A stretch of 64,000 nt of DNA from Malacoraja senta. Its lineage: Eukaryota. Under the pieces are notes generated by a model, which searched no databases, was not told the origin of the DNA, and worked only from the letters and a program-made list of their open reading frames with translations. The DNA lies in contig CM075990.1 in NCBI GenBank assembly GCA_038087875.1, forward strand, positions 3,970,001 to 4,034,000, read 5' to 3'. This document shows positions 5,113 to 60,658 of this stretch, piece after piece. The translations under genes and the position numbers were made by a program. Position 1 is the stretch's first letter, and each line of letters begins with the position of its first letter.

Positions 5113-5249
5113 GAGTGATGGTGGTCGGCAGTGATGTTGGGACTCTGTGCTTGACCCCTCCTATACACAAGACATGCCTCCTGCCGCTGTAGAACGGGCC
5201 ATGCCACGACACCACTCTCTGACCACGCTCTCCCCGCTCTGATCTCCAG

Positions 5250-9369: not shown

Positions 9370-10060
<691 letters not shown>

Positions 10061-12295: not shown

Positions 12296-12826
12296 CTTCT
12301 GTCTCTCTGTCTCTCTCTGTCTATTTCCCTCCCCCTCTTTCCTCTCTTCTTCCCCTTCCCCCTCCCCCTCTCCCCTCTCTTTCTCTCCCTTTCTTCCCCC
12401 TCTCTCTCTCTCTTTCTCTCCCTGTTCTTTCTCTCACTTTCTCTCCCTCTCTCTCTCCTTCCCCCTCTCTCCTTCCCCCTCTCTCCCCCACCCACCCCCT
12501 CTCTCTCCCCCCTCTCCCAGTCTCTCCCTCCCCCTATCCCCCTCTCCCTCTCCCCCACCCCCTCCCACTCTCTCCCCATCCCCCCTCTCCCTTTCAGTCT
12601 CTCTCCCCCTCCCCTCCACTCTCTCCCCTCACTCCCTCCCCCTCTCTCCCCCTCCCCCTCTCTCCCCATCCCACTCTCATCCTCTCCCCCACCCCCTCAC
12701 CCTCTCTCCCTTTCAGTCTCTCCCCCTGCCCTCCTCTCTCTCCCCTCTCTCCCTCTCCTCTCACTCCCTCCCAGTCTCTCCCTCGCAGCCTCTCCCTCCC
12801 CCCTCTCTTCCTCTCCCCCTCCCCTC

Positions 12827-12857
<31 letters not shown>

Positions 12858-12858
12858 A
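12296..12858. repeat. CT-rich low-complexity polypyrimidine tract
   Basis: About 560 nt of almost pure C/T. Confidence 0.95.
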
Positions 12859-12911
12859 TCCACTGTTCAACCGAGCCACCCTGTGACAGTGAAACATGTT
12901 TCCTCTTGCAG

Positions 12912-13014
12912 GGACTTGAACTTGAAGAAAGCAATGTACCAAAAGACTGCCTGCTACGGCCACTTTGGCAGGAGTGAGTTCCCGTGGGAGGTGCCCAAGA
13001 AGTTGAGCTTCTAA
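12912..13014 (+). CDS. MAT1A: S-adenosylmethionine synthase last coding exon (DLNLKKAMYQKTACYGHFGRSEFPWEVPKKLSF*)
   Basis: ttgcag| acceptor, phase 2, TAA at 13012-13014. Confidence 0.95.
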
Positions 13015-19300: not shown

Positions 19301-21244
19301 CTCCAGAATAAGTGACCACTCTTTCACCGCAAAGAGTTAAAGGGTTCATCTCTACATCTTGTACAACTGCACCATGTAGTGGCGTTTCCAACTGAGCGCT
19401 GCATCGTTCCTTTATAATAATGAAAACAGAAAGGCAACAGTGGCGCAGCGGTAGTTGCTGCCTCACAGCGCCAGAGACCCGGGTTCACTCACGACTACGG
19501 CCACTGACAGGACTGTTTGCACGTTCTCCCTGTGACCGCGTGGGTTTCCTCCGGGTGCTCCGGTTTCCTCCCACATCCCATAGACATGCTGGTTTGTACG
19601 TTAAATGGTTTCTGTAAATTGCCCGTAGTGTGTAGGTCAGTGTTGGTGTACGGGATGAGCGCTGGTCGGCTCGGACTCCGTGGGCCTGTGTCCGCGCTGT
19701 TGCTCTAAACTATGTGCCAACACTTGCATTTTGCCCATATAGTAAGTAAGTAAGTTTATTGGCCAAGTATTCACATACAAGGAATTTGCCTTGGTGCTCC
19801 GCCCACAAGTAACAATATAACATACAGTGACAGTTACGAATGACTCAGAATATCCCTCTAAACCTATCCTATCCTTGTACGTGTCCATATATCTTTTAAA
19901 TGTTGTTATAGTACCTGCCTGAACTACCTCCTCTGGCAGCTCAGCCCATTCATCCACCACCCTCTGTAGTGAAGAAACTATTCCTCAGGTTGCTATTAAA
20001 TCTTCCCCCTCACCTTAAACCTTCATCCTCTGGTCCTTGCTAGGTATAAGACTGTTCATTCACCCTATCTATTCCCCTCATGATCTTATACACCTCCATA
20101 AGATCACCCCTCACGCTCCTGCACTCCAAGGAATAGAGTCCTAGCCTGCTCAACCTCTCCCTATAGCTGAGGCCCTCAAGTCCTGGTAACATCCTCGTAA
20201 ATCTTCTCTGCACTGAGTTAAAGTGTTGTTCCATCAATGAATGTACGCAACAAAGCCTGGCAGTGGGGGATAGGCCAGCTAGGAGGGGAAGACCATCAGG
20301 TCCATGGAATAGTGCTCCCCTCACCAGGGTCAAAATACCTGGAGCAATCTTCTCACTGCCTATCTCCGTTACCAAAGCCCTACCTTCCCCCACCTCCTCC
20401 ACCTGCCCCTCCCTCTCCTCCACCCAGCGACTCCTCAACCACTAACCCTACCCCATATCTCAACGCCCTGTTAGGTTTTAGTTTTAGAGATTCAGCTGAA
20501 AACGGGCCCTTCGGCCCATCGAGTCCGTACCGACCAGCGATCAACAGTACACAGTGGTGCAACGGTAGAGTTGCTGCCTTGCAGCGCTTACAGCGCCAGA
20601 GACCAGGGTTCGCTTCTGGCTACGGGCGCTTGTCTGTACGGAGTTTGTACGTTCTCCCTGTTACCTGCGTGTGTTTTCTCAAGAGAATTTTGGTTTTCTC
20701 ACACACACCAAAGATGTACAGGTTTGTAGGTTAAATGGCTTGGTAAAAATGTAAAAATTGTCCCTAGTGTGTGCAGGATAGTGTTAAGGTGCGGGTATTG
20801 CTGGTTGGTGCGGACTCGGTGGGCCGAAGGGCCTGTTTCCGCGCTGTATCTCAAAACTAAAACTAAACTACACTAGTTCTATCCTACACACTCGAGACAA
20901 TTTAAAGAAGACAATTAACGTACAAACCTGTACGTCTTTGGAGTGTGGAAGGAGAGGAAGCAGGAGCACTCGGAGGAAACCCACGCGGTTACAGGGAGAA
21001 CGTGCAAACTCCGTACATACAGCACCCGTAGTCAGGATCGAACCTGGGTCTCCGGCCCAATAAAGCAGGACCACCACTTAGGACACCACTGTGCTGCCTA
21101 AGTAGAACATGCAGCACAGAGGGCACCGGAGGTCAGGATTGAACCGGGGTCACTGGCGCTGTGAGGCAGAGCTGCACCACCCTAAAATGTTGCATTGCAT
21201 TGGATGTGGTGAGGTGGGAGACAACGTCCACAATATAAAGGATG

Positions 21245-21317
21245 CGCCTGAACAGGGACTTGAACCCTGGACCCTCAGATTAAAAGTCTGATGCTCTACC
21301 GACTGAGCTATCCAGGC
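21245..21317 (-). tRNA. tRNA-Lys (anticodon TTT)
   Basis: Reverse complement is GCCTGGATAGCTCAGTCGGTAGAGCATCAGACTTTTAATCTGAGGGTCCAGGGTTCAAGTCCCTGTTCAGGCG, 73 nt, canonical vertebrate tRNA-Lys(UUU) with intact A and B boxes. Confidence 0.96.
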
Positions 21318-29566: not shown

Positions 29567-29572
29567 TTTATT
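29567..29572 (-). promoter_or_regulatory. Candidate polyadenylation signal of the uncharacterised gene
   Basis: AATAAA on - about 730 nt after the stop codon. Confidence 0.55.
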
Positions 29573-30305: not shown

Positions 30306-30496
30306 TTACCTGGAGTTGCTGATTGGGAACGATGTGTCACCACACAAAAAGCACATGGTTTTATTGTTGATTTTTCCATGGAGGTCTCGCTTGATGGCTG
30401 AGATCATGAGGGTCTCTTCGCTGTGATCGTACGCTACATCGAGGCAGCGCTTGGCAAAGTAGTGAGAAGATTCAGCGCTAACTGCTAACGCACTTT
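30306..30496 (-). CDS. Uncharacterised secreted protein exon 6 (ESALAVSAESSHYFAKRCLDV...KTMCFLCGDTSFPISNSR*)
   Basis: tgctcacag| acceptor, phase 1; same frame as ORF 30306..30515; TAA at 30308-30306. Confidence 0.85.
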
Positions 30497-31363
30497 CTGT
30501 GAGCACAAAGTTCAATTGTTTAGTTTAGTTTAGAGATACAGCTCGGAAACAGGCCCTTCGGCCCACTGAGTCCGGGCCGACCAGCGATCCCCGCACATTA
30601 ACACTACCCTACACCCACTAGGGACAATGTTGCATATACAAGCCAATTAACCTGCAAACCTGTACGTCTTTGGAGTGTGGGAGGAAACCGAAGATCTTGG
30701 AGAAAACCCACGCAGGTCTCGAGGAGAACGTACAAACTCCGTACAGACTGCACGTGCAGTCAGGATCGAACCCGCGTCTCCGGCGCTGCAAGCGTTGTAA
30801 GGCAGCAACTCTACCGCTGCGCCACCATGCCGCCTATTGAATGAATACTTTATTGTCACATGTGACAAGTCACAGTGAAATTCTTTGCTTGCGAACCCAA
30901 GGTATGCAAATAGTCGCCCATAAAGGGCGCTGACAAAGTTACAAATTTCTGCCCAACCACGTCGGGTCCTCCAAGTGGGTTTATTAGCGACAGGGTTATG
31001 CACCCACGACCCACTGTTCAGAAGACCTCAGTGAGACCCACTCCACTTTAGGGACAGCACGGTGGCTCAGCGGTACAGTTGCAGCCTCACAGCACCAGAG
31101 ACCCGGGTTCCATCCTGACTACGGGGGCTGTCTGTACGGAGTCTGCGTGTTCTCCCCGTGACCACGTGGGTTTTCTCCGGGTGCTCCGGCTTCCTCCCAC
31201 TCCCACAGAAAACGTGTGAGTTTGTACGTTAATTGGCCCTCTGTAAATCGGCGCTTAGTGTGTAGGGAGTGGATGAGTGAGATTAACTTGGAACTAGTGT
31301 GAACAGGTGATCGATGGTCAGTGTGGACTTAGTGGGCTGAAGGGCTTGTTTCCATGCTGTATT

Positions 31364-31394
31364 ACTAACTAACTAACTAACTAACTAACTAACC

Positions 31395-31440
<46 letters not shown>

Positions 31441-31561
31441 TTAACTAACTAACTAACTAACTAACTAACTGACTAATCTAACTAACTAAACGAACTGGAT
31501 AACTAACTAACTAGCTAACTAACTGACTAACTGACTAACCTAACTAACTAAACTAACTGGA

Positions 31562-31613
<52 letters not shown>

Positions 31614-31765
31614 AAACTTACTGACTGACTGACTGACTGACTGACTGACTGACTGACTAACTAACCAACTAACCAACCAACTAACTAACTAACTAGCTAA
31701 CTAACCAACCAACTAACTAACCACCAAACCGACTAGCTAACTAACCAACCAACTAACTAACTAGC
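31364..31765. repeat. (CTAA)n/(CTGA)n microsatellite grown from a SINE tail
   Basis: Direct reading; follows the SINE at about 31050-31363. Confidence 0.95.
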
Positions 31766-32086
31766 GAGAAGATAGACACAATAAGCTGGAGTAACTCAGC
31801 GGGTCAGGCAGCATCTCTGGAGAAAAGGAATAGGTGACGTTTTGGGTCGTGACCCTTCTTCAGACTGAGAGTCGGGGAGAGGGAAACTAATTAACTAACT
31901 AACTAGCTTAACACCAATCTCGTATCTCCGTCCACCACCACCCCTGTCCGCATACTTCAGGCACCCTCTACTCTCTGTGTAAAACGCTACTCCCACACAT
32001 CTCCTTTAAACGTTGCCCCTCTCACCTTGAGGCTCTGCCCTCGTCAGCCTAAACTACCAGTGGGATGTTAGTGTAGAGGGACGCAC

Positions 32087-32201
32087 CTTGACAGTTGGCC
32101 AAACGGTTGCCTCCAAAGTACTGCGTTGTCCACTTGTAGCCGGTCTCTTCCCCACACCTCTCGTATGGCCGCGATCTCCTGAGGAACTGGAAGTCATAAC
32201 C
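32087..32201 (-). CDS. Uncharacterised secreted protein exon 5, sushi-like C-half (GYDFQFLRRSRPYERCGEETGYKWTTQYFGGNRLANCQ)
   Basis: ctctctgcacag| ... AAG|gtgcgt; 115 nt; GY-x-F...C...W...C pattern. Confidence 0.9.
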
Positions 32202-33227
32202 CTGTGCAGAGAGAGGCGAGGTCAATGATTGTCCATCTGTACACTGTGTATTGCCACATCATGAGAACATCAAGTGCCGAGCTGCTGCTAACGCCACTCC
32301 CACGATAAACCGTGGGCAGCACGGTGGTACAGCAGTAGAGTTGCACCTAGAGACCCAGAGACGCCGGTTCAATCCTGACTACGGGTGCTGTGGATACACA
32401 GTCTGTACGTTCAAATCCCTCAAAACCTTTCCTATCCATGCACCTGTCCAGCTGTCCAAATGTCTTTTATTTGTTACCTGCCTCAACTCCCTCCTCTGAC
32501 AGCTCGTTCCAAATGCCCACCATATCGGGAGGTGTGAAGAAGGGTCTCGACTCAAAACATCACCCATTCCTTCTCTCCAGAGATGCTGTCTGTCCCGCTG
32601 AGTTACTCCAACTTTTTGTGTCTATCTTTGGTTTAAACCAGCATCTGCAGTTCCTTCCTACACAATGGAAAGACATTTGGACAGGTACATGGATAGGATA
32701 GGTTTGCAAGGATGTGGGCCGTATTTGGGCAGGAGGGACTAGTGTAGATGGGGCATCTTGGATGGCATGGGCAAGTTGGGCCGAAGGGCCTGTTTCCATG
32801 CTGTATGGCCCCATGACTGTGTATGAGTGAGGGGAGAAGAGGGATGGAGGTCAGGAACGCTCACTGAGGCAGCGTATATCCACCATGGTGCAGCAGTGTT
32901 GGTGGTGCAGAGATAGAGTAGCTGCCTTACAGTGCTCGCAGCGCCAGAGACCCGGGTTCAATCCCGACTACGGGTGCTGTCCGTACGGAGTTTGTACCTT
33001 CTCCCCGTTCCCTGCGTGGGGTTTCTCCGAGATCTCCCACGCTCCAAAGACGTACAAGTTTGTAGGTTAATTGGCTTGGTATAAGTGTAAAATTGTCCCT
33101 AGTGTGTGTGTGTGTGTAGGATGGTGTTAGTGTGCGGGGATCGCTGGTCGGCGCGGTCTCGGTGGGCCGAAGGGCCTGTTTCCGCGCTATGTCTCTCAAC
33201 TAAACTAAACTAAAACAGAGACCGTAC

Positions 33228-33340
33228 CTTGTTACACATGGGCTTGCAGTAGCGCGTCCTGTTCAGCGTCAGACACACCAGGCCTCCGTTCGCGGGGATG
33301 ATGGGGAAGCTGCAGTTCTTGGGGTTCACATGCTGACAAG
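33228..33340 (-). CDS. Uncharacterised secreted protein exon 4, sushi-like N-half (ACQHVNPKNCSFPIIPANGGLVCLTLNRTRYCKPMCNK)
   Basis: ttctccgtag| ... AAG|gtacgg; 113 nt; C-x-x-P-x-x-P-x-N-G motif. Confidence 0.9.
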
Positions 33341-33599
33341 CTACGGAGAAAGCACAAACATCCGGGGGGGGGGGGGGGGGGGAATCACCACCCGCAAACC
33401 AAGAAACAGTGTGAGATTCAGAGTCTAATCACAGCGCTGGGGGCAGCCTAAATGTAATCATGGGTAGTTTTTTCATCGACTGGATAGCATACAACTAAAA
33501 GGTTTTTCACTGTACCACAATAATGATGAACTAAGCAAAACAAATTAAACTGTTAATCTGCAGGGCTCGTTATTTTAGAGAGGGCGTGTAAAAGTCACA

Positions 33600-34160
33600 G
33601 CCAGGATAGTGGTATAATTTGTCCCCTAATTTGAGGAAGGACATTCTTGCTATTGAGGGAGTGCAGCGTAGGTTTACAAGGTTAATTCCCGGGATGGCGG
33701 GACTGTCATACGCTGAGAGACTGGAGCAGCTGGGCTTGTACACTCTGGAGTTTAGAAGGATGAGAGGGCATCTCATTGAAACATATAAGATTGTTAAGGG
33801 CTTGGACACACTAGAGGCAGGAAACATGTTCCCGATGTTGGGGGAGTCCAGAACCAGGGGCCACAGTTTAAGAATAAGGAGTAAGCCATTTAGAACGGAG
33901 ACGAGGAAACACTTTTTCTCACAGAGAGTGGTGAGTCTGTGGAATTCTCTGCCTCAGAGGGCAGTGGAGGCAGGTTCTCTGGATACTTTCAAGAGAGAGC
34001 TAGATAGGGCTCTTAAAAATAGCAGAGTCACGGGATATGGGGAGAAGGCAGGAACGGGGTACTGATTGGGGATGATCAGCCATGATCACATTGAATGGCG
34101 GTGCTGGCTCGAAGGGCCAAATGGACTACTCCTGCACCTATTGTCTATAGTCTATTGTCT
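33600..34160 (+). mobile_element. CR1 LINE 3' fragment (young subfamily)
   Basis: EGVQRRFTRLIPGM...RTRGHSLRI...FFSQRVVSLWNSLP; (ATTGTCT)n tail. Confidence 0.9.
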
Positions 34161-35135
34161 AATTCATTTTAGTGTGGTGGTATAATTCAGCGTGGAAACA
34201 GGCCCTTCGGCCCATCGTGTTCGCTGCAACCAACGATCCCCCCCGTACACTAGTTCTCTCCTCCACCCTTGGGACAATTTCCAGGTGCCAATTCGCCTGC
34301 AAACCTGCACTTTTTTTGGAGTGTGGAAGGAAACCAGAGCATCCGGAGAAAACCAACGTGGTCACAGGGAGAACATGAAAAATCTATCCATGCAGCACAG
34401 ACCGGATTGAACCCGGGTCTCTGGCGCTGTAAGGCAACAACCCTACCGCTGCACCCCTCTGCCCCCTGGTGGACAAGAGGCTTTTGGATAGGCAGAGATG
34501 CTGCCTGACCCGCTGAGTTACTCCATAACGTTGTGTCTCTTTTGTATCCTTGTGTCCACACCTGAACCGACCTGACAGGTAGGTTTTGGGTAAATAGGTT
34601 GATGAGAATCAGAGAACCTTGCCAAACTATGCAAAGCCCAGCTTAAGGTTCCTGAGTCTTGATTAATATTGTTGTCAGGGGTTATGGGGAGAAGGCAGGA
34701 GAATGGGGTTGAGAGGGAATGATAGATCAGCCATGATTGAATAGCAGAGTAGACTTGATGGGCTGAATGGCCTAATTCTTCTCCTAGAACATATGAAATT
34801 ATGAATTGAGGAACTTGCGTTTAGACCGAGTCTCTACAAACACCACTGCTGCTGATGACAAGCGGGGAGTGGAAAGGGGTGAAGGTGGGGTGGGAACTCT
34901 GGAGGATGAGGGGCAAACATTCCCAGAGCAGGAGAGAGAGAGTCTAATGGCAGCCCAGCCTAATTCTGCTCCTAGAAATTATGAGTTTATCAAAATGGAC
35001 GTTGGGTGCTGGGACTTGGAACTTCTCACAGAGGCAGTGAGTGTGTAGAAGGTGGCCCAGTGCAGCAGGGAGTGAGGGGTGAGGGTGGAGACACAAGGGT
35101 CGGTCAGTGTGATGTGAGGGTGTGGGGCTGTGTAC

Positions 35136-35250
35136 CTTTCACTCGGAGGGAGCGCAGGGTGTCTGCAGCGTTCTGTAGCAACTTGTAGAGTTCGCTCAGC
35201 TTCCCCGCCTCCAAACGCTGCAGGGCCTGCTGGGAACAGTTGTTGAATAA
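35136..35250 (-). CDS. Uncharacterised secreted protein exon 3 (LFNNCSQQALQRLEAGKLSELYKLLQNAADTLRSLRVK)
   Basis: cccttctctctgcag| ... AAG|gtacac; 115 nt; amphipathic helical pattern. Confidence 0.85.
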
Positions 35251-35668
35251 CTGCAGAGAGAAGGGACAGCAACGTCAGCTGTAGATCCGCTGCCTCAGTG
35301 CGCCAGAGAGAGCGCCCGGTTCAATCCCCACCTCGGCTGCTGTCTGCCTCCCTGTGACCGCGTGGGCTTCCTCTGGGTGCTCCGGTTTCCTCCCACATCC
35401 CAAGAACATGCGAGTCGGTGGGTCAACTGTCCACCATAAATTGTCCCCACAAGTGGCAGAATCTTGTGGAGTTCATGAGAATCAAATGTGGGGTTAGTGC
35501 AGGATCAGTGGGTGAGTATGGACCCGATGGGCAGAAGGGCCTGTTTCTAGGCCGCATTGCTCAATGGCTCTCTGACCTTTGAGTTGCCAATGAACTTGAT
35601 GCACTTCCATCCTTCTCCTCTCTCCCTGTCCAGTTGTCAGATGAGGGAGTCACAAACACGGGCTCTGT

Positions 35669-36240
35669 GATCGTTTCGCTGAACACCTTCGCTCAGGCCA
35701 ACTAGGCCTACACGATCTCCCGGTTGCCAAACACTTAAACTCCCCTCCCATTCCCACACTGACCTTTCTGTCCTGGGCCTCCTCCACTGTCAGAGTGAGG
35801 CCCAATGCAAATTGGAGGAATAACATCTCATATTTCGCTTAGGCAGCTTACACCCCAGCGGTATGAATATTGACTATTCCAACTTCAAGTAGCCCTTGCT
35901 TTCCCTCTCTCTCCGTCCCTCCCCAACCCTAGTTCTCCGACTAGTTCCACTGTCCTCCTGATTAATTTTACTGTTTATAAGCCTCGTTGTCACCTGCCCC
36001 TCAGCCAACAATGAACCATTCTACATTTCTTCAACCATCGTCTGCTTTGATCTGTCATTTTCACACCTTACCCCTTCCACATATCTCTAATCTCCCTCCC
36101 CCTTGACTCTCAGTCTGAAGTAGGGTCTTGACCCGAAACATCACCCACTCCTTCTCTCCAGAGATGCGGCCTGTCCCGCTGAGTTACTCCAGCATTTTGT
36201 GCCTATCTTCGGTGTAAACCAGCATCATCAGTTCCATCCT
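35669..36240 (+). mobile_element. Penelope-like element 3' fragment (GIY-YIG endonuclease end plus downstream repeat)
   Basis: DRFAEH...LPVAKH..SPSHSHTDLSVLGLLHCQSEAQCKLEE.HLIFRLGSLHPSGMNI..SNFK*, then CTGAAG...GGGTC..GACCCGAAAC. Confidence 0.8.
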
Positions 36241-37040
36241 GCACAGAAACAGGCCCTTCAGCCCATTGAGTCCACACTGACCTTCAACTGAATATCTCCA
36301 CACAATTCTACATGAACCAGAGTCTGAAGAAGGATGGATCCTGACCCAAAACCCCATTGACATCCCCGCAATGCAGGAGCTGATTGCCCCGATGTGGAGG
36401 GCCCAAACACCGCCAGCTGCGGGAGTCAAGATCGTCCCACCAATGGAGGGCTTGAGGCCCCCGACCGCGGGAGAGCTAAGGGAAGATATTTGAACTTTTT
36501 TTCGCCTTCCATCACAGTGAAGAATGTGGAGGAGTCACTGTGGTGGATGTTTATGTTAAAATGTATTTTGTGTGTTCCGTATGACTGACTTGGCAAATCT
36601 TCTTCTTCTTGCGTATGGCGTGCACAGCCTAAAGTTGTAGGACAACTTGTTCTATTTGATCTTATTTGATTGTGCACGCCGGGTCGATTGCATTCGTCGA
36701 AACAGGGCGGACCACGTGAAGGTTGCAATCTCCCACCCCAACTTGGCAAATGAAACTCCTCGTATGTTGCAAAACAAACTTGGCTAATAAAGTATTATTG
36801 TGATTGTGACTCCACACTGACCTTCAACTGAATATCTCCACACAATTCTACATGAAGAAGGATCCTGACCCAAAACCTCACCTATCCATGTTCTCCAGAG
36901 ATGCTGCCTGACCTGTTGAGTTATCCAAGACTTTGTGTCATTTTTGGTAAACCAGCATCTACATATTCATCGTATCCGCCATCTTTGCTCTCAGCCTGAC
37001 TGAGGAAGATAAGCAGCACTCTATATAATAACAAGACTTA

Positions 37041-37390
37041 AGAGCCTGTCCCACTTTCCGGAGTTATTCACGAATTCTCCCGAGTTTTCCCATTGATTCA
37101 AACTCGCAGAATGTTCGTAACGAGTCCGTAGGAGGCCGTGGATATATCGTAGCGGCCCGTTTTGCCAGCCGTAGGTACTCGGGGCTATTTTTTTACCCGT
37201 GGACATTTTTTATCGGGCTGGAAAAAACGTCCCGACTAACCTGATGCCCCAAGTACCTACGGCTGGCATAACGAGCCGCTACGATATATCCACGGACACC
37301 TACGGACTTGTTACGAACATTCTGCGAGTTTGAATCAAGGGGAAAACTCGGGAGGATTCGTGAATAACTCGGGAAAGTGGGACAGGCCCT
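37041..37390. mobile_element. PIF/Harbinger-type palindromic MITE
   Basis: Same termini as 2211-2652, TTA TSD, about 145-bp inverted arms. Confidence 0.88.
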
Positions 37391-37449
37391 TTAGACAGGG
37401 TGCTGGGGAGATTTACCCACAGAGCGATGCTAATGTTCACCGGCCAGGC

Positions 37450-37935
37450 TTTGTTTACAAGGTCATTTCCCGGGATGGCGGGACTGTCATATGCTGAGAG
37501 AATGGAGCAGCTGGGCTTGTACAGTCTGGAGTTTAGAAGGATGAGAGGATACCTCATTGAAACATATAAGATTGTTAAGGGCTTGGACACGCTAGAGGCA
37601 GAAAACATGTTCCCGATGTTGGGGGAGTCCAGAACCAGGGGCCACAGTTTAAGAATAAGGAGTAAGCCATTTAGAACGGAGACGAGGAAACACTTTTTCT
37701 CACAGAGAGTGGTGAGTCTGTAGAATTTTCTGCCTCAGAGGGCGGTGGAGGCCAGTTCTCTGGATGCTTTCAAGAGAGAGCTAGATAGCGCTCTTAAAGA
37801 TAGCGGAGTCAGGGGATATGGGGAGAAGGCAGGAATGGGGTACTGATTGGGGATGATCAGCCATGATCACATTGAATGGTGGTGCTGGCGTGAAGGGCCG
37901 AATGGCCTACTCCTGCACCTATTGTCTATTGTCCT
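37450..37935 (+). mobile_element. CR1 LINE 3' fragment (same subfamily as 33600-34160)
   Basis: Near-identical sequence and tail. Confidence 0.88.
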
Positions 37936-38157
37936 GTCCCAGCTTCCTTCTCCTCCCACTTCAATGTGAAGAAGAGTCCTGACCTCAATCGTCACCTATC
38001 CTTGTTCTACAGAGATGCTGCCTGACCTGCTGAGTTACTCCAGCACTTTGTGTCTTTCCTTGTGAACTAGCATCTGCAATTCATTGTGTCCACAATCTTT
38101 GCCCCCCCCCACTCTGGCTGAGGAAGTCAATATTCAATCTGATAATGAAAGTCATAC

Positions 38158-38240
38158 CTTGAGGCTGTTGGTCAAGTGCAGGTAGCCATCGGCACTAAAT
38201 ACATCCTGGCAATTGTCAGCGTCCTCCACTAAATATGCAC
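38158..38240 (-). CDS. Uncharacterised secreted protein exon 2 (GAYLVEDADNCQDVFSADGYLHLTNSLK)
   Basis: Long T tract plus cttcag| acceptor; AAG|gtatga donor; 83 nt. Confidence 0.82.
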
Positions 38241-40787
38241 CTGAAGAAAAAAAAAGATAAGCCATCAAAAGTCATGAAGTGGGCTCATTACATTTCCCAC
38301 TCTTGCTCCTGTATGGCCTACACTGGGACCCAGTGCCGTACAGCCCACATCCACGTCCACGTCATTCCATGGGCAAAGGTAGACACAAAAAGCTGGAGTC
38401 AGGCAGCATCTCTGGAGAAAAGGAACAGATGACATTTTGGGTCTAGACCCTTCTTCAGACTCGAAGATCTCTGGAGAATCTAAAGGATGTCTGAAGAAGG
38501 GTCTCGACCTGAAATGTCACCCATTCCTTCTCTCCAGGGATGCTGCCTAACCCGCTGAGTTACTCCAGCATTTTGCGTCGATCTTCGGTTTAAACCAACG
38601 TCTGCAGTTCCTTCCTGCACATGAGATGAGTGAGATCTCCTTTAACTTTCTAGACTAGCCAACTATGGCGGGACCTTGTCAAAGGCCTTGCTAATGTCCA
38701 TACATACAACATCCTCTGCCCTGCCCTCATCAATGGGTGACCTCTTCAAAAAGCTATCAGATTTGTGAGACATGATTTCCCCCCCTCCCCACACACACAC
38801 GCACACACACGCAGCCATGCCGACTATTAGTTTAGTTTAGAGATACAGCGCAGAAACAGGCCCTACAGCCCACCAAGCCCGCACCGACCAGCGATCACCG
38901 CACATTAACACTACCCCACACACGCTCGGGACAATTTTACATTGATACCAAGCCAATTAATCAACAAACCTGTATGTCTTTGGAGTGTGGGAGGAAACCG
39001 AAGAACTCGGAGAAAAACCCACTTGGTCACGGGGAAAAGGTACAAACTCCGTACAGACAAGCACCCGTAGTCAGGATGGAACCCGGATCTCTGGCGCTGT
39101 GAGGCAGCAACTCTACCGCGGTACCACCGTGACTATCTCTAGCCAGTCCGTGCCTGTCCAAATGCTGGCGGATCCGATCACTAAGTATCCGCTCCAACAA
39201 CTTTCCAAACACTGACATCAGGCTCACCGGCCTGTAGCTCCCAGGCCTGTTCTTGCTGCCCTCCTTAAGTAACTGTTCAACATCAGCCACCCTCCAGCCT
39301 TCCAGCACGACATTTGTGGTGAAAGATCATTTTTTTATTTTTTTTTATAATAATATTTTTATTAGAGGCAGGTACATATTATATTGAAAACATTTCATGT
39401 ATATCATTCCTGCATTACTAATATTATCGATTGATATTCACTCTGCCTCTAGTATTTTTTTTTTTATATAGGTAGAAAATAAGAGAATAACAGAAAGAGA
39501 AAAAAAGGGATGATAAAGAAGAATGGAATAAATTACTAAAAGTACAACGTTGGAGATATATTCGTACATTTTAAAATATAACTTTTCATCTAATCCTTAA
39601 TTCGAGTTTCAGTCAGGTTCTCGTGTTCTGATAAAAAGTTCTTGTTTGTCCATTAAGATCTTTAAAGCGGCATCCATCATTTCCACCTTCGCCTCCCACA
39701 CGGTTCGAGAATGCACGTGGTCAGGCCCTATCTAAAAGCCTCTTAAACGCCACGATCGTATCTGCCTCCACCACTGCCGGCAGTGTGTTCCAAGCCCCTA
39801 CCACCCTCTGTGTAAAAAAACTTGCCCCGCACATCTCCATTAAACCTTCCTACTCTTGCCTTATAACTCTGCCCTCTAGTGCTGGGCATTCCCACTCTGG
39901 GATAAAGCTTCTGACTGTTTACCCTTCTTATAATTTTATAAACGTTTATCAAGTCTCCCCTCAACCTCCGACGTTCCAATCCAAGTCTAATCCACTTGAA
40001 ACCCTCTAATCCGGACAGTATTCTGGTAAACCTCCTCTGCACCTTCCCCAAAGTCTCCTGGGCCGACCAGAACTGCACGCAGTACTCCAAATGTGTAAAT
40101 GGATTCTGTGTAAAAATCTTGCCCCCCACGTCTCCTTTAAGCATTGCCCCTCTCGCCATAAAACTACACCCTCCAGTCTTTGACGTCTCCAGGCTGGGCT
40201 GCCGTGAGACTCTCTCTCCTGCTCTGGGAATGTTTGCCCCTCACTCTCCCTCCCCACCTTCACCCCTCTCCACTCCCCGCTGGCGATCAGCAGCAGTGGT
40301 GTTTGTAGAGACTCGGACTAAACACACATTCGTAAATTCATAATTTCACTGGTTCTAGGAGCAGAATCAGGCCGTTCGGCCCATCAAGTCTACTCCGCCA
40401 TTCAATCTTGCCAGATCTATCTTTCCCTCCTAACCCCATTCTCCTGCCTTCTCCCCATAACCCCTAGCACTCGTGCTAATCAAGAATCTATCTCTGCCTT
40501 AAAGATATCCATTGACTTGGCCTCCACAGCCTTCTGTGGCAATGAATTCCACAGATTCACCACTCTCTAACTAAAGAAATTCCTCCTCATCTCCTTTCTA
40601 AAGGTACGTCTTTTATTCTGAAGCTGTGGCCTCTGGTCCTAGACTCTCCCACTAGTGCAAACATCCTCTCCACATCCACTCTATCCGGGCCTTTCACTAT
40701 TCGGTAAGTTTCAATGAGGTTCCCCCTCATCCTTCTAAACTCCAGCGATTACAGGCCCAGTGCCGTCAAATTCACGTGGTACATTAC

Positions 40788-40854
40788 CTGAGAGGAGAAG
40801 GCAGAAGGAGGCGGCCAGTGTGAGCTGGGCCTGTAGTATGTGAGCCGCGGCCAT
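40788..40854 (-). CDS. Uncharacterised secreted protein exon 1, signal peptide (MAAAHILQAQLTLAASFCLLLS)
   Basis: ATG about 55 nt below TATAAA; hydrophobic core; CAG|gtaatg donor; 67 nt. Confidence 0.8.
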
Positions 40855-40909: not shown

Positions 40910-41036
40910 TTTATACTGGTCATTGCTGGCACCAGTGGCTCGGGCAGAGCACAGGGAATGTTAATCATTACACAGCTTGAGAGATCCCCCACACACAGGA
41001 TTGTTCAAGGCAGGGAGATGGATTGGGCAAAGTCCG
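40910..41036 (-). promoter_or_regulatory. Putative promoter: TATA (40910-40915), HNF1-like (40960-40972), CCAAT (41022-41026), HNF4-like (41024-41036)
   Basis: TATAAA on -; GTTAATCATTACA versus consensus GTTAATNATTAAC; TGGGCAAAGTCCG versus the HNF4 CAAAGTCCA core. Motif matches only. Confidence 0.6.
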
Positions 41037-43439
41037 TGCAGTCTTTGTTTCCCAGGGGGAGACTTTACTGCTGAGAGTTGACCCGGATACTTCACTCATG
41101 GTGAGGTGGCCCGATGGTGGGGAAACAGCAGGGAGTTACGTGGGGGAGTGGGCCAAGCTGGGAAAGGGCAACCGTGCAGATCTGTGCAGGAAAAAACAAT
41201 TTGGGATCGATTGGAACAAAGAATATAGAACCATCGTCATAGTTATAGAGTGATACAGTGTGGAAACAGGCCCTTCGGCCCAACTTGCCCACACCGACCA
41301 ACATGTCCCAGCTACACTAGTCCCACCTGCCTGCGTTTGGTCCACATCCCTCCAAACCTGTCCTATCCATGTGCCTGTCCAACTCTTTCTTAAATGTTGG
41401 GATAGACCCAGCCTCAACAACCTCCTCTGGCAGCTTGTTCCATACACCCACCACCCTTTGTGTGAAAAAGTTACCCCTTACATTCCTATTAAATCTTTTC
41501 CCCTTCACCTTAAACCTATGTCCTCTGGTCCTCGATTCCCCTACTCTGGCAAGAGACTCTACCCGATCTATTCCTCATGATTTTATACACTATACAGCAC
41601 ATAAATAGGCCCTTCAGCCCACAATGTCCATGCCAGACATCATGCCAAGTTAAACTGATCCCTGCCTGCACGTGATCCATATCATGTCACAAGGAATAGG
41701 AGTAGAATTAAGCCATTCGGCCCATCAAGTCTACTCTGTCATTCAATCTGATCTATCTCTCCCTCCTAACCCCATTTTCCTGCCCTCCCCATAACCTCTG
41801 ACACCTATACTAATCAAGAATCTATCTATCTCTGCCTTAAAAATATCCACTGATATCCATCAAACCCTGTATATCCATGTGCCCATTGAAAACCCTCTTA
41901 AATGCCTCTATCATATCTGCTTCCACCACCGGCCCTGGCGTAATGTTCCAGGCACCCACCGCCCTCTGCGCAAATTAACTTGCCCCAACTACAACTCCTT
42001 TAAACCTTCGCATTTCACCTTAAAACTATGCCTTTTAGAAAGCATCAAACTGTGCATTTTAGTCTTTGACACTGGAGATAAAGTTCCCATTGTCTCCCCA
42101 TTCGATGACATCGGTAATTTTGTAAACTTCTGTCAGGTCTCCGCTCAATCTCCGATGCTCCAGATTGTTCCATCCAAGTTTCTTCAACAGCTTCTTCTAG
42201 TTAATACACTTGAATCCAGGCAGTGTTCTAGTAAACCTCTGCCCTCTCCCCAAAGCTTCCACATCCTTCCTGTAATGGGGTGACCAGACTGCACACCAAT
42301 GCCGCCTAACCAAAGCCTTATAAAGCTGCAACATGGTTCCCTGACTTTGAAACTCAATGCCCGACTAATGAAGACATGCATTGGTGGAGTGGCACGGTGG
42401 CGCAGCAGTTAGAGCTGCAGCCTCGCAGTGCCAAAGACCCAGGTTCGATCCTGACTTTGGGTGCTCTCTGTTTGGAGTTTGTACCTCCCCCATGTGAACG
42501 CATGGGTTTTTCCCGGGTGCTCCAGTTTCCTCTCGCACTCCAAAGACATACAGGTTTCTAGGTTAATTGGCTTCAGTAAAGATTATAAATTGTCCTTAGT
42601 GTGCGGGATAGTGTAAGTGTGCCTTGTTTACTGATCGGCGCAGACTTTGTGGGCTGTATCTCTAAACAAATTAAACTAAAGCGTACCATACAGCTAGATT
42701 ACACTTTATCTATTTAGCGGTGCTGGCACGAAGGGCCGAATGGCCTACTCCTGCACCTATTGTCTATTGTCTATTTGTTTGTGACCTCCATCGCAAGCAG
42801 AACAGAATCCACGCCCTCCATGCAAGAACAGCCCATCACCTGCATAAGTGGGGGGTGACAGACAGCCCTGCTTGCGATGCGGACATCTAGACCAGACCAT
42901 CGCAGACATCGTGAATGACTGCCCATTGAGGCCTTTCCCTGGGGGCATCAAAGCCATCTACCCAGTGACTGATGCTGCCCTGGCCTGGATGTCTACCCTA
43001 GATCTACAACTTTCGGCTGTGCACACCATACACTAGAAGACCACTTTATCGACTGGTGTCACCACGTTCAGAGAGTTACAGACACGGAACCCAAGGACCC
43101 CTGTCCACATTGACGCTGTCGAGGGTCTTGCCATTAATTATATATTTTCCCCCTTACATTCGTTCTCCCAAAGTGCAAAAGTGGTAGCGCGCAGTCACGG
43201 ACTTACGCAGCACAGAAACGGACCATCCATTGCAAGTCAAACCAGGGCAGAGCCCTCACAGTGCATGTCAGGGCTCTGCGGAGGGATGTAGTGGAGGAAT
43301 CTAGGAGTGCAGGTGGTCAAGAAGGCTTTGGCACATTGGCCTTCATCAGTCAGGACACTGAGTACAGAAGTTGGGACATTATGTTACTGTTGGACAAGAT
43401 ATTTCTGAAGCCACAATTGGAGTGTAGTGTTCAGTTTTA

Positions 43440-44870: not shown

Positions 44871-46044
44871 GATGTAGAGAAGGTGAGATGTTGTCAAGCT
44901 GGAAAGGGTGCAGAGAAGATTTACGAGGATGTTGCTCGAGGGAGAGGGAGAGGTTGAGTAGGCTGGGACTCTATTCCCTGGAGCGCAGGAGGATGAGGGG
45001 TGATCTTGTAGAGGTGCATAAAATCGTGAGAGGAATAGATTGCATAGATGCACAGAGTCTCATGCCCAGAGTAGGGGAATCGAGGACCAGAGGACATAGG
45101 TTCAAGGTGAAGGGGGGAAAGATTTACTAGGAATCTAATAGGGGAAACATTTTCACACAGGGTGTATGGAACAAGCTGCCAGAGGAGATAGCTGTGGCAG
45201 GGACTACTCCAACATTTAAGAAACCGTTGGACATAGGATAGATAGGATAGCTTTGGAGGGATATGGACCAAATGCGGGCAGGTGGGACTGGTGTAGGTGG
45301 GACATATTGGCCGGTGTGGGCAAGTTGGGCCGAAGGGCCTGTTTCCACATTGTATCACTCTGTGACTCTATGACGATGGTTCTATATTCTTTGTTCCAAT
45401 CGATCCCAAATTGTTTTCTCCTGCTCAGATCTGCACGGTTGCCCTTTCCCAGCTTGGCCCACTCCCCCACGTAACTCCCTGCTGTTTCCCACCATCGGGC
45501 CACCTCACCATGAGTGAAGTATCTGGGTCAACTCTCAGCAGTAAAGTCTCCCCCTGGGAAACAAAGACTGCACGGACTTTGCCCAATCCATCTCCCTGCC
45601 TTGAACAATCCTGTGTGTGGGGGATCTCTCAAGCTGTGTAATGATTAACATTCCCTGTGGTCTGCCTGAGCCACTGCCGCAGCTCACACACTACAGGCCG
45701 CAGCTCACACTGGCCACCTATGGTAAGATACCACGAGCATTTGACGGCACTGGGCCTGTACTCGCTGGAGTTCAGAAGAATGAGGTAGTTGAGGCTGGGA
45801 CTACTCCAACATTTAAGAAAAAGTTAGACAAAAGAGCTGGAGAAACTCAGCGGGTGCAGCAGCATCTATGGAGCGAAGGAAATAGGCAACGTTTCGGGTC
45901 GAGACCCTTCTTCAGAAGTTAGACAGGTACATGGATACGACAGGTTTGCAGGGATATGGATGAAACGCAGGCAGGTGGGACTAGTGTAGCTGGGGCAAGT
46001 TGGGCCGAAGGGCCTGTTTCCACACTGTATCACGCTATGACTCT

Positions 46045-54546: not shown

Positions 54547-54851
54547 TTAGACATTGAGTATTCCCAGTCCATGGTCCTCGGGCTCGGTGCAATGCAGAGA
54601 GTTGAAACTTGAACACTGCAGTGAGGGAGCTTGCTTGTTCTCACAACTTTGCTCCATTGGAGGTGGTTTCTCCGCTACGCTCTTCCTGCTGGTCTCTGGG
54701 CAGTTCTGCACGTATATCACCCTGTTGTACGCCTTCAGTCTCTTCCACAGCTGTATGTACACTTTACACTGGACGTACATGAACACAAGTCCACCAATGA
54801 ATCCAATGGCCACAACCACCAGCTTAGTCCAAAACGGCCACTCTAAAATAC
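54547..54851 (-). CDS. MARCHF8: MARCHF8 last coding exon, TM2 and tail ([53 protein letters not shown]...ILNV*)
   Basis: ccacag| acceptor, phase 1; same frame as ORF 54547..54819. Confidence 0.95.
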
Positions 54852-55565
54852 CTGTGGAGATAGGTCGGGACAGTTCAGGATTATCACTTCACTGTGAGAA
54901 CAAGGAGAAAATAAATCAACTATTTGTTCTTATGCATGACATGCTTTACTTTTAGTACTTTATTTTAGACACAACGTGGAAACAGGCCCTTCGGCCCACC
55001 AAGTCCATGCCGACCAGCGATCCACCCGTACACTTGCGCTATCCTACACTTGAAACAATTTACAATTTTACAGAAGCCAATTAACCTACAAACCTGCACG
55101 TCTTTGAGATGTGGGAGGAATCCGGAGCACCCGGAGGAGACCCACGCGGGTCACAGGGAGAACGTACAAACTACTTACAACAGCGCCCGTTGTCAGGATC
55201 GAACTCGGGTCTCTGGAGCTGTGAGGCAGCAACTCTTCGGCTGTTCCACCCTGCTCCTGATCTTTGCTTAGCCGGAAACAGTAGACACAAATAGCTGGAG
55301 TAACTCAGCGGGTCAGACAGCATCTCTGGTCGAGATCCTTCTTCAGACTGCTAGCTCTCAACTTGAAAACTGCCAGTGCTATTAAATCCCATTGCAGGCT
55401 TGCTGTTCCCAGCCCATGTGCCCTCTTCACCTACAACCCACCAACGCATCTGTCTTTCTGTTTCTGGTCTCAAGCACCCTTGAATTTATTGTTCCTTCAC
55501 CTACACCAGCCAAAGCCCCAAGCTCTGGAATTCTCTCTGCTTCACCACACTGACTGTTGTACAGT

Positions 55566-55699
55566 GACAGACCCGTCTCCACCAGTACTGTAGCCCAGTG
55601 TTATACAACGACAGACCCGACCCCACCAGTACTGTACCCCAGTGTTATAGAACGACAGACCCGACCCCACCAGTACTGTACCCCAGTATTATAGTGACA
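55566..55699. repeat. 44-bp tandem repeat, 3 copies
   Basis: GACAGACCCGACCCCACCAGTACTGTACCCCAGTGTTATA... Confidence 0.85.
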
Positions 55700-56608
55700 A
55701 AAGGAGAAACATCATTTCCACATCCACTAAGGACCCCCCCCCCCTCAGGATCTAAACCATTCACATCACCGTCCTCTCTCCCCCCCCTCAGGCAGGGTTT
55801 GGAAGAGCTCCAGGGCGTCACGATGACCCTAAAGGGAACCAGAGCTCTCCCCAGCACATTCCCACACATCCTCTCCAAGCAGACAAGCAGCACAGAGTCC
55901 AGGTCCAAATCCAATCTATCCCACATTGAATCAAGGAGCTGCAGATGCTGGTCTACCAAAGAAAGACACACAGTGCTGGAGTAACTCAGCGGGTCAGGCT
56001 GCAACATCCCTGGATAGGTGACGTTTTGGGTCGGGACCCGTCTTCAGCTTGAAACCCGAAATATCACCTTGTCCCTGAATGCTGGGCTGCGCCCCCTCGC
56101 TCCCTGCTGAGAATCTGGCCGGTCAGTCAACTATGTGGCTGCTAACAGGGCGGCCCGGTGGCGCAGTGGGATTGTTGCTGTCTTACAGTGCCAGAGACCC
56201 GGGTTCGATCCTGACTACGGGTGCTATCTGTACAGAGCTTGTTTGTTCTGTCGGTGACCCGCGTGGGAATATCTCCGAGATCTTCGGTTTCCTTCCACAC
56301 TCCAAAGACGTACAGGATTGTAGGTTAATTGGCTTCGGTAAAATTGTAAATTGTAGGATAGTGTACGTGTGCAGGGATCGCTGGATGATGCGGACTCGGT
56401 GGGCTGAAGGACCTGTTTCCGAGCTGCATCTCTAAACCAAACTAAACTCAAACACAGTGGCTGTTTATTCACCACAGACAAGCCTAACGCTAAAATCAGG
56501 ACCCCACTCCACTCAGAAAATGTAATCAAAGGTCATTTCCAGATGACAGACGTCGGCATGGGTAATGGTCTTTGAGGGTCAGGTGCACAACAGGAGGGGT
56601 GTACCTAC

Positions 56609-56756
56609 CGTTGGTCTGGCCTTGTTTAATCTCCTCGGCTGTTCTGTCAATGAGGACGTATAATGACCACACCACGCAGGTGATTGCAATGATATGGAAC
56701 GTGACTGAGCACAGGATCTTCCTCCTCTCACCCGCCGTCATCTGCAACTTCTCCCA
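56609..56756 (-). CDS. MARCHF8: MARCHF8 exon with TM1 ([49 protein letters not shown])
   Basis: acacag| ... ACG|gtaggt; 148 nt. Confidence 0.95.
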
Positions 56757-57557
56757 CTGTGTAAGGAAGGTAAACAGTATCAGGCCGTGCATGCACCGCC
56801 AACTTCACACGTTACAAATGGCCCCTCTCTCAGCTTTGCTAGGAGACAGCTTTCACTCCCACTCCTGGGCTGCAACTAGACCCTGCTCCATACCGAATTT
56901 GTGTAGGAAGGAACTGCAGATGCTGGTTTAAACCGAAGATAGACGCAAAATACTGGAGTAACTCAACGGGACAGGCAGCATTTCTGGAGAGAAGGAATGA
57001 GTGGCGTTTCGGATCGAGACCCTTCTCTCCAGTGATGCTGCCTGTCCCGCTGAGTTACTCCAGATTTTATGTGTCTATCTTCCATACTGGATTTGCATGC
57101 TCTCTAGATTAGTTTAGTTTAGAGATACAGCGCGGAAACAGGCCCTTCGACCCACGAGTCTGCACCGACCAGCGATCCCCGCACACTAACGCTATCCTAC
57201 ACACACTAGGGACAATTTACATCTATGCCAAGCCAATTAACCTACAAACCTGTACGTCTTTGTTGAGTGGGAGGAAACCGGAAAAAGCCCACGTGGGTCA
57301 CCGGGAGAACGTGCAGACGCCATACAGACAGGCGCCCGTGGTCAGGATCAAACTTGGGTCTCTGGAGCTGTAAGGCAGCAACGGCCTCTGGAGCTGTAAG
57401 GCAGCAACGCTACTGCTGCGCCACCGTGCCGCATCATAGAGTCATACAGCATGAAAAGAGGCCCTTCAGCCCAACTCATCCATGACAACCAAGATGCTCC
57501 ATCTAAGCTAGTCTCATTTACCTGCATTTGACTCCTATCAATCTACACCGTTCCTAG

Positions 57558-58143
57558 CAAAGATCCTATAGCGAGCAAGATAGTGCACTCCTGCTAAAAC
57601 CAATGGGCTGACGTGTAGTACGCTACGGAGCGGAACGTCAGCCTTTTCATCGGCCATTTTAGTAACCCGACCCAACTTTGTAAATCCCTCTCGCAGTGTA
57701 ATCAGCGTTGCAGGGGAACAGTTTGTGTGTGTGATATAGTGTTAGACCCATTATTCATAATTCTGTTAATTCATAATTCTGCTATTTTTTGTTAATGATT
57801 AATATGTCACTAAATTATAATTCAGTTAATTTTTTTTTAATTTAATTTTATTTTTTTAAAGTTTTTTTTTTAATTTCTTTTTAAATGGCTCATGTGCTGT
57901 GTTTGAGTTGATATTTGTATTAAACTTGCACTCTGTCATTCATTTGATCACACTGTTCACAACTGCGGTATTTGGTAAAATAATAGCAACATGGAGATTC
58001 CAGTTGCTATAGGATCTTTGGATAGGAGTGCGGAGACGGAAGCCGGTTACGGAAATGGGGCCGGAGATTACCCATGAATCTGCCCACGACCCTACTACGT
58101 CTTTTTCGTCGAGCGGGCTATCTGGCTTGCTCTAGGATCCTTG
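57558..58143. mobile_element. Non-autonomous DNA transposon with 8-bp TSD (P- or hAT-superfamily)
   Basis: GTTCCTAG duplicated at 57550-57557 and 58144-58151; imperfect 33-bp TIR CAAAGATCCTATAGCGAGCAAGATAG; splits a CR1 3' fragment. Confidence 0.8.
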
Positions 58144-58989
58144 GTTCCTAGTCCTGCACCTCCCCGAATATCTTTCAAATGTGTGATTGTACCTGCCTCA
58201 ACTACCTCCTCTGACAGCTTGTTCCATATCCCCGCCAAATATGGAAAAGACATCCCACGGGTTCCTATGTTAAGAAGGAACTGCAGATGCTGGAAAATCG
58301 AAGGTAGACAAAAATGCTGGAGAAACTCAGCGGGTGAGGCAGCATCTATGGAGCGAAGGAATGGGTGACGTTTCGGGTCTCGACCCGAAACGTCACCCAT
58401 TCCTTCGCTCCATAAAGATATAATAGGGTTCCTATTATATCTTTTCCTTCTCTCCTATGCCCTCTCAATCTTGGTTTTCCAACCCTCGATAATGTGTGCT
58501 CATTCACTCTCTACGCCTCATATGATTCTATACACCTCTCTCTCTGATCATCCCTCAGACACCCATGGAATAAACTCCTAACCTGGCCAACCCCTCCCCA
58601 CTACTCAGTCCTGCAAGTCTTGCCACCATCATCTTAAATCACTTCTCCAAAGCCTCCACATCCACTCAATATCCTCCACAACTTTGGTCTCCCTCACACG
58701 CCCATCCCTTTGATTCATTTGCCTCCAAACAGCACAGTAATAACACAGCTACCTATTAACCAACCACCCACGCACTTTGGGACATGAGGGGAAACTGGAG
58801 CACCTGGAGGAAACCCAGACCACCACAGGGAAAACACGTAAACTCCACACAGACAGCACCCAAGGTTAAGGACAAACCCGGTGTTTGGAGCTATGAGGCA
58901 GCGTTACCAGGTGACGAAGTTCCTCCAGAACTTACAAGCATCTTGCCAGGACTCGAGGACCTGAGCTAAAGGGGGAGGTTGAGGCTAGG

Positions 58990-59565
58990 ACAATAGACAA
59001 TAGACAATAGATGCAGGAGTAGGCCATTTGGCCCTTCGAGCCAGCATCGCCATTCAAAATGATCATGGCTGATCATCCCCAATCAGTACCCAGTTCCTGC
59101 CTTCTCCCATATCTCCTGACTCCGCTATTTTTAAGAGCCCTATCTAGCTCTCTCTTGAAAGCATCCAGAGAACCTGCCTCCACCGCCCTCTGAGGCAGAA
59201 AATTCCACAGCCTCGCCACTCTCTGTGAGAAAAAGTGTTTCCTCGTCTCCGTTCTAAATGGCTTACTCCTTATTCTTAAACTGTGGCCCCTGGTTCTGGA
59301 CTCCCCCAACATCGGGAACATGTTTCCTGCCTCTAGCATGTCCAAGCCCTTAACAATCTTATATGTTTCAATGAAATTCCCTCTCATCCTTCTAAACTCC
59401 AGAGTGTACAAGCCCAGCTGCTCCATTCTCTCAGCATATGACAGTCCCGCCATCCTGGGAATTAACCTTGTAAACCTACGCTGCACTCCCTCAATAGCAA
59501 GAATGTCCTTCCTCAAATTAGGGGACCAAAACTGCACACAATACTCCAGGTGTGGTCTCACTAGG
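58990..59565 (-). mobile_element. CR1 LINE 3' fragment (same subfamily)
   Basis: ORF 59073..59561 RPHLEYCVQFWSP...; (AGACAAT)n on +. Confidence 0.9.
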
Positions 59566-60477: not shown

Positions 60478-60658
60478 TTTACGCAGTGGTTTTAACTTGG
60501 TCTCCATGATGAACTCGTATTTACAGAGCTCGCAGCAGCGCGTGTCCGAGCTCTTGACCCACTGCTGCAGACAGGCCTGGTGCACGTAGCGGAGGCTCCC
60601 GGTGCAGTGGCACGGCGTGATGAGTGGACCCTCATCATCTCCTTCGCAGTGGCATATT
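60478..60658 (-). CDS. MARCHF8: E3 ubiquitin ligase MARCHF8 RING-CH exon ([60 protein letters not shown])
   Basis: tgtgcag| ... AAA|gtacgt; 181 nt; C4HC3 RING-CH. Confidence 0.95.

Follow-up and report, generated by a model that had tools for sequence, protein, structure and literature searches.

A single-copy skate gene of the si:ch1073-126c3.2 family encodes a predicted secreted protein with one sushi fold and a strand-helix-strand C-terminal segment

Positions 3,970,001 to 4,034,000 of Malacoraja senta contig CM075990.1, from an assembly of 1.94 Gb, form the 64,000-nucleotide window analyzed here, and all coordinates below are window coordinates unless a contig is named. The minus strand carries a six-exon gene which, on sequence evidence, is the single-copy orthologue of an annotated, uncharacterised family known as si:ch1073-126c3.2, whose members include Amblyraja radiata LOC116966335. 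Its 227-residue product is predicted to consist, in order, of a signal peptide, a helical region, one six-cysteine sushi fold, and a short strand-helix-strand segment. The gene is not new, yet it marks a real gap: its zebrafish counterpart is an abundant male liver transcript and a measurable plasma protein, and the family extends from lampreys to birds and is unstudied. What we add is anatomy, namely, a predicted sushi fold with one near-invariant loop, followed by a truncated domain also found in tunicate and invertebrate matrix proteins. Neither this half-domain anatomy nor the links to cyclostomes and tunicates turned up in the literature searched, and the anatomy appears undescribed.

The peptides of the original prediction, which named no strand, map to six blocks on the minus strand (Table 1), and GT-AG borders with pyrimidine-rich acceptors are present at all five introns, which are 2547, 2907, 1795, 1026, and 1590 nt long with phases 1, 0, 1, 0, and 1. 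Joined, the exons give 684 nt that translate into 227 amino acids and one stop, reproducing the splice borders, matching phases, and open reading frame (ORF) first proposed. Recounting the cysteines (13 in all, 12 after the hydrophobic N-terminus) and the four sequons (NCS54, NCS97, NRT115, and NKT209) confirmed the 12 mature-chain cysteines and the four sequons given before. The only hydrophobic stretch is N-terminal, with the eight highest 19-residue hydropathy windows beginning within residues 1-11, in line with the claimed absence of a transmembrane helix. Across 227 aligned residues and with all six exons matching, the product is 89.9% identical to Amblyraja radiata XP_032868350, colinearly, and 83.7% identical to Rhinoraja XP_078284456. 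Because these matches cover every exon, a chance ORF is excluded, and the six-exon skate gene is real. Over exons 4-5, 74 of 76 residues are identical to Amblyraja protein P0001.

Read evidence covers exons 1-5, and the support that it lends to this part of the gene model is indirect. In run X1 (contigs, by guess RNA, from a related organism), exons 4 and 5 have a common depth of 368.5 and exons 1-3 one of 321.2, with pieces ending no more than 2 bases from the exon borders. Run X6 (contigs, again RNA by guess) has common depths over exons 1-3 and depth on exon 5 as well. Raw-read run X24 and run X8 gave zero depth at the exon rows where X1 and X6 had depth. None of the four splice joints between exons 1-5 was among the joints listed, in a table dominated by repeat-derived reads. 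A check for holders of RNA on record listed none for this DNA, an outcome that carries no weight on expression. A seventh exon, considered on account of a donor-like sequence at the stop, is unlikely from the sequence; the DNA past the stop reads Ser-Val-Ser-stop, like the Amblyraja C-terminus. Amblyraja (P0001/P0144) and Leucoraja (P0145/P0146) each have two isoforms that differ by one Glu at the exon 3-4 junction, and the window model corresponds to the shorter type. Intron 5 contains a 99-copy ACTA tandem repeat at 31364-31763.

Kinship with the si:ch1073-126c3.2 family (zebrafish gene 555816, UniProt B8JME6; Amblyraja LOC116966335; Leucoraja XP_055517883), suggested earlier, was borne out by database matches of full length and in the same cysteine frame. 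Identity to the window protein is 89.9% in Amblyraja, 44% in a chimaera, and 33-37% in salmon, a frog, and a gull. A query with exon 5 matched 3 proteins among 7 candidates, one of them named si:ch1073-126c3.2, and a query with P0001 gave 66 matches among 1303 candidates in rays, sharks, a chimaera, teleosts, frogs, birds, and hagfish. A profile search gave 125 matches among 6374 candidates, 120 of which are listed, and record look-ups added bichir, axolotl, caecilian, newt, lungfish, and three lamprey species. Eight core cysteines define the family: seven occur in all 69 family proteins and the eighth in 68, and the window protein has all eight along with the family motif GYDFxFLRxSR...W. A tree of 30 core segments puts the 21 vertebrate rows into one group with 89/91 support, short of the star level of the tool, and resolves the inner order in part only. 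Within the genome, all five matches of the P0001 query fall at the window locus; a lamprey query gave two matches there and one noise match (E 0.39). Two family members, P0182 and P0084, carry the wrong database names 'zona pellucida sperm-binding protein 1' and 'fibroblast growth factor receptor 2.'

Judged from these sequences, the family is pan-vertebrate, from lampreys and hagfish to birds. It was originally described as a jawed-vertebrate factor, which is too young an origin, because the lamprey and hagfish members place it before jawed vertebrates. Nor is the gene hidden, as first described, since three or more other skates have it annotated. Mammals, turtles, crocodiles, and lizards are all absent from the 66 matches and from the 120 listed of the 125, and none of 74 further representatives resembled an unplaced full-length amniote. 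A loss of the family in mammals is suggested, and the absence of mammals is weak evidence because zebrafish, chicken, and non-avian reptiles are missing from the same lists. The human and mouse homologue cells are likewise empty for this gene in the zebrafish plasma tables of PMC4829857, consistent with the earlier failure to recognize a human counterpart. If mammals truly lack the gene, it would mark a plasma function that was lost or replaced there.

The central domain is predicted to be a sushi by fold. No Pfam family was found in the 227-residue protein, and the Sushi/CCP profile PF00084 matched 0 of 66 family members at E<=0.1. The monomer model (pLDDT 82.6, pTM 0.74), in contrast, matches modules of E-selectin, factor H, CD46, CD55, and Crry, with E-selectin (PDB 4c16) closest. 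That match is limited to residues 97-167, and the lectin domain, EGF domain, and membrane anchor of E-selectin are not in the window protein. Sushi modules have four framework cysteines, a Trp before the last of them, and phase 1-1 intron borders; the window protein has C99, C125, C143, W151, and C164, plus an extra pair, C112 and C121, and introns 3 and 5 around the domain are both phase 1. The earlier description as a secreted protein with a single six-cysteine sushi-like module thus agrees with the hydrophobic N-terminus and the modeled fold. Six internal disulfides are predicted, three in the sushi and three at 33-55, 91-218, and 183-221 (P0001 numbering); with them, the C-terminal strand would be anchored where the long N-terminal helix ends.

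The loop F131-x-F133-L134-R135-x-S137-R138 stands out within the sushi, with 87-100% conservation at the named positions among the 69 family proteins. It is present in lampreys and hagfish and is retained to birds while its flanks drift, and stretch 119-162 is net positive in 68 of the 69 proteins. We considered a furin site within the loop (R-x-x-R) unlikely, since the next residue is Leu in 84% of the family and Pro in skates, set against the known preference of furin. Exon 6 is far less conserved than exons 4-5, and the helical N-terminal region is missing in cyclostomes.

Comparisons beyond the vertebrates bear mainly on the segment that follows the sushi. A search of 50%-identity representatives gave 85 matches, the distant ones being invertebrate modular proteins (HYR, sushi, EGF, and ephrin-receptor-like repeats) and a tunicate protein with FN1 repeats (Phallusia CAB3246632, labeled 'fibronectin,' 432 aa). 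The last 139 columns of the tunicate protein correspond to the family sushi and C-terminal segment: a profile of residues 95-222 aligns with its C-terminus end-to-end at 66 bits (HHalign probability, 99.1%), and segment 165-222 alone aligns with it at a probability of 80%. It ends at the same Cys-Gly as the vertebrate family, with FN1 repeats in place of the helical N-terminus and a loop that is basic but of other sequence. This is a different protein from the 3698-residue Ciona fibronectin of PMC5006582.

The invertebrate SVEP1-like proteins (P0122, P0127, and P0137, with HYR, sushi, probable SEA, and ephrin-receptor-like repeats) have a six-cysteine sushi followed by the same Tyr-Phe, Cys, helix, and Cys-Gly as the family, and the profile alignments run through the part encoded by exon 6. 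They differ in being large and multidomain, with some extending past a basic cleavage site, and in lacking the conserved Arg loop and the N-terminal helices. Segment 165-222 scored 20.6 by HHalign against their halves before the basic site, compared with a maximum of 12.3 in 40 column shuffles, at a probability of only 22%. Past the Cys-Gly, two of five invertebrate proteins (P0127 and P0137) continue into an Arg/Lys run and then a further strand and helix, one (P0129) continues without a basic run, and two (P0103 and P0124) end within a few residues. Profile comparison supports homology of exon 6 to the half-domain before this basic site. We infer that exon 6 is the first half of a putative SEA-type domain, ending where its relatives are cut. 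The window protein does not contain a complete two-half SEA domain; its domain stops at Cys-Gly, with a short tail only. The AlphaFold model of P0127 is good over the sushi and the next segment (pLDDT 73-98 over residues 51-210) and poor after the basic site, and a fold search with this poorly modeled half matched helices only, with no SEA chain in 50 rows. Pfam SEA matched none of the five invertebrate proteins, and an Atlas search for the SEA fold gave no usable match. SVEP1 itself (VWA, HYR, EGF, pentraxin, and many sushi modules; ~3571 aa) is labeled with a SEA module and a furin site in a figure legend of PMC13722417; the 227-residue window protein has no such architecture. The resemblance to the SVEP1 sushi claimed earlier stands for invertebrate proteins of SVEP1-like architecture, where it continues beyond the sushi into the next domain; SVEP1 itself has domains of the same kinds.

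Gene, orthology, and conservation come from the present analysis; liver mRNA and plasma protein come from zebrafish work by others. In PMC3547925, the zebrafish orthologue ranks 22nd among male liver transcripts at 7303.7 transcripts per million (TPM), falling to 916.7 with estradiol and 431.7 with 11-ketotestosterone. PMC4829857 has it among the plasma proteins with a male bias (ratio, 3.12), with estimates of 5.2 and 15.2 ug/mL. The parts seen of these two papers contain no functional assignment. The full-text literature searched, whose scope leaves out subscription papers and most supplements, where omics tables may list the gene, names it in these two papers and contains no study dedicated to it and no paper on conserved synteny of the family. 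The label "uncharacterised" holds for function, while liver expression and plasma presence had already been published.

The skate gene has a putative liver-type promoter, with an HNF1-like site ~45 nt upstream of a TATA box (Table 1). HNF1-like matches number 5 in the window against 1.74 expected, and the combination of such a site with a TATA pattern occurs once and in 0 of 100 shuffles, with a pattern picked after the site had been seen. Unlike the other family copies compared, the window copy has its promoter and exon 1 partly duplicated, ~4 kb upstream of the gene and inverted (two matches in the genome). This duplicate keeps the HNF1-like site and is without the TATA box, 5' untranslated region (UTR), ATG, and 18 nt of exon 1; it could act as an enhancer or a source of antisense RNA. 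With hydrophobic N-terminus and promoter motifs as the basis in skate, and expression and plasma data by analogy from zebrafish, the window protein is likely a secreted liver plasma protein.

For function, we tentatively favor an accessory protein of plasma, without enzyme activity, whose loop would bind a single conserved acidic partner, most plausibly in complement or clotting, though we hold this short of probable. The protein would be made in liver and secreted into blood, as the zebrafish data and the predicted skate signal peptide and promoter suggest. Because the loop (F131-x-F133-L-R135-x-S137-R138) is kept from lampreys to birds while its flanks drift, it may be the site that holds the acidic partner. 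The helical region, because it is missing in cyclostomes, was probably a later addition and may provide oligomerization or a second contact. Placing the partner in complement or coagulation is a guess, made from the type of domain and the abundance of the protein. By this proposal it would act much as do the C4BP beta chain, factor XIII-B, and the haptoglobin alpha chain, which, like beta-2-glycoprotein I, are liver-made, secreted, non-catalytic, and sushi-based. The window protein differs from those chains in domain order, has no match to them at the sequence level, and is predicted to keep no cysteine free for bonding to another chain. It falls outside the complement-regulator family, is distinct from SVEP1, and is no sushi protein at the Pfam level.

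Three other readings overlap with an accessory protein and are not fully exclusive of it. The loop could instead attach to phosphatidylserine, heparan sulfate, or microbial surfaces, tagging these for clearance, in the manner of domain V of beta-2-glycoprotein I with polyanions and anionic lipids. A positive patch in 68 of 69 family proteins beside conserved Phe and Leu, abundance in plasma, and beta-2-glycoprotein I clusters among low-scoring feature matches (0.77, a lead only) speak for such a binder; the structural matches, however, fall at residues 63-121 or 184-243 of beta-2-glycoprotein I and not in its last domain, and conservation of Arg and Ser seems stricter than diffuse polyanion binding usually needs. 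We regard it as possible and on the unlikely side. Somewhat more doubtful is a SEA-type domain completed in trans: exon 6 would supply its N-terminal half, and completion would come from a second copy (giving a symmetric dimer) or from the C-terminal half of a furin-cleaved SEA domain carried by a matrix or membrane protein, so that the window protein would serve as an adaptor or decoy. Alignment of segment 165-222 with the half before the basic site of invertebrate modules and with the tunicate C-terminus, the Arg/Lys run, strand, and helix of P0127 and P0137, and the SEA and furin labels of SVEP1 in the figure legend of PMC13722417 are consistent with it, as is a monomer model in which residues 168-179 are not drawn as a strand. 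The monomer is nevertheless already modeled with good confidence; in addition, the half of P0127 after the site folded poorly and matched helices only, Pfam SEA found none of five proteins, the strand that would have to pair has changed to small residues in vertebrates, and conservation is far lower in exon 6 than in exons 4-5. We give equally little credence to the bolder form, in which a furin cut was frozen into the genome of an ancient chordate gene, leaving the N-terminal product of a sushi-SEA module that is secreted into blood at microgram-per-mL levels, is completed in trans, and presents its invariant arginine loop to a conserved partner. If true, it would mean an abundant plasma system common to lampreys, sharks, fishes, amphibians, and birds that was lost in mammals. 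Just as doubtful is a liver-derived signal or cytokine carrier whose single sushi would bind a growth factor or a receptor, in the way that IL-15 is bound by IL-15 receptor alpha. One deeply conserved surface and the steep hormone response in male zebrafish liver (PMC3547925) fit this, as does the single SVEP1 sushi, CCP20, that is the TIE1 binding site in PMC13722417.

The two remaining readings depart further from an accessory protein. Fold matches to modules of factor H, CD46, CD55, and Crry and the best non-family feature match, a Sushi plus C4bp_oligo cluster (0.80, a lead only), would suit a complement regulator like factor H, CD46, or C4BP that acts as a cofactor or by decay. Such regulators need three or four tandem sushi modules, whereas the window protein has one, of a six-cysteine type closest to E-selectin, and its neighbors are SAM-synthetase and RINGv genes; we think a regulator very unlikely. 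Least credible of all is a decaying or mis-assembled copy. Exon 6 lacks 4 residues present in all seven cartilaginous-fish relatives checked; in one alignment the gap spans F200 and E203, which 96% and 97% of the 69 family proteins retain, and Amblyraja and Leucoraja read on for 4 more codons before their stop. The 4-residue loss preserves the reading frame, however, and shortens the C-terminal helix by about one turn; a shifted alignment register places Ile and Asp at F200 and E203, and Leu follows at L204. The earlier stop drops 4 residues of a tail that is missing in most relatives, exons 4-5 are nearly identical to P0001, and this is the only copy found in the genome.

Table 1. Features of the gene and of the surrounding window
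Feature	Position in window	Strand	Basis
Exon 1, coding part: ATG and predicted signal peptide (residues 1-22); phase-1 donor	40788..40854	-	19/22 residues identical to P0001
Exon 2: end of signal peptide, Cys33, first helices; phase-0 donor	38158..38240	-	Sequence, alignment, model
Exon 3: Cys55, sequon NCS54, long amphipathic helix; phase-1 donor	35136..35250	-	Sequence, model
Exon 4: Cys90 and first half of six-cysteine sushi-like domain; phase-0 donor	33228..33340	-	38/38 residues identical to P0001; fold match
Exon 5: second sushi-like half, near-invariant basic-aromatic loop, Trp; phase-1 donor	32087..32201	-	Alignment, fold match, family conservation
Exon 6, coding part: strand-helix-strand segment to Cys-Gly, short tail, TAA	30306..30496	-	Sequence, alignment, profile comparison
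Candidate polyadenylation signal, first AATAAA 3' of stop; ~735 nt 3' UTR	29567..29572	-	Sequence
TATA box, 56 nt upstream of ATG	40910..40915	-	Sequence
HNF1-like site, ~45 nt upstream of TATA box	40960..40972	-	2 mismatches to HNF1 consensus
Decayed inverted duplicate of promoter and exon 1	45014..45785	+	89-94% identity to 40933-41590
S-adenosylmethionine synthetase gene exons, left neighbor	450-13011	+	Pfam central and C-terminal domains
RING-variant (MARCH-type) ubiquitin ligase gene, last exons, right neighbor	54550-60678	-	RINGv domain
Tc1-like transposase, open 294-aa frame, within SAM-synthetase intron	7081-7962	-	Pfam HTH and DDE domains
tRNA-Lys(TTT)	21244-21317	-	tRNA call
Doubtful tRNA-Cys	10407-10478	-	tRNA call

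Searches for a skate SVEP1 reached other genes instead. The HYR domain led to a putative SRPX-like gene with identical scores on two contigs (G000:C3:41907946-41913230 and G000:C7:22802218-22807502); it would be a recent duplication or an assembly duplicate. Ephrin-like repeats led to thyroglobulin (G000:C1:3349287-3352670; L049, L040), for which structures exist (PDB 7n4y, residues 1197-1232; 6scj, residues 1331-1388). The thyroglobulin hinge before the type-2 repeats (PMC8748809) begins, by eye, with a Cys/Gly-Gly spacing like that of the family sushi and further on has a Cys-strand-strand pattern like that of the invertebrate domain, without a basic site. As a lead only, this hinge might represent an uncut form, of known structure, of the sushi-SEA module described above; family profiles gave no match to thyroglobulin.

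In the window genome, Pfam domains place the two neighbors in the SAM-synthetase and RINGv families, in keeping with the names MAT1A and MARCHF8 given to them earlier. MAT1A is linked with collectins, and from this came the idea of a collectin cluster, which was dropped after a crude motif scan of 164 kb gave 0 matches and the literature offered nothing useful. Near 16300, the ORF list includes a second tRNA-Lys-like stretch.

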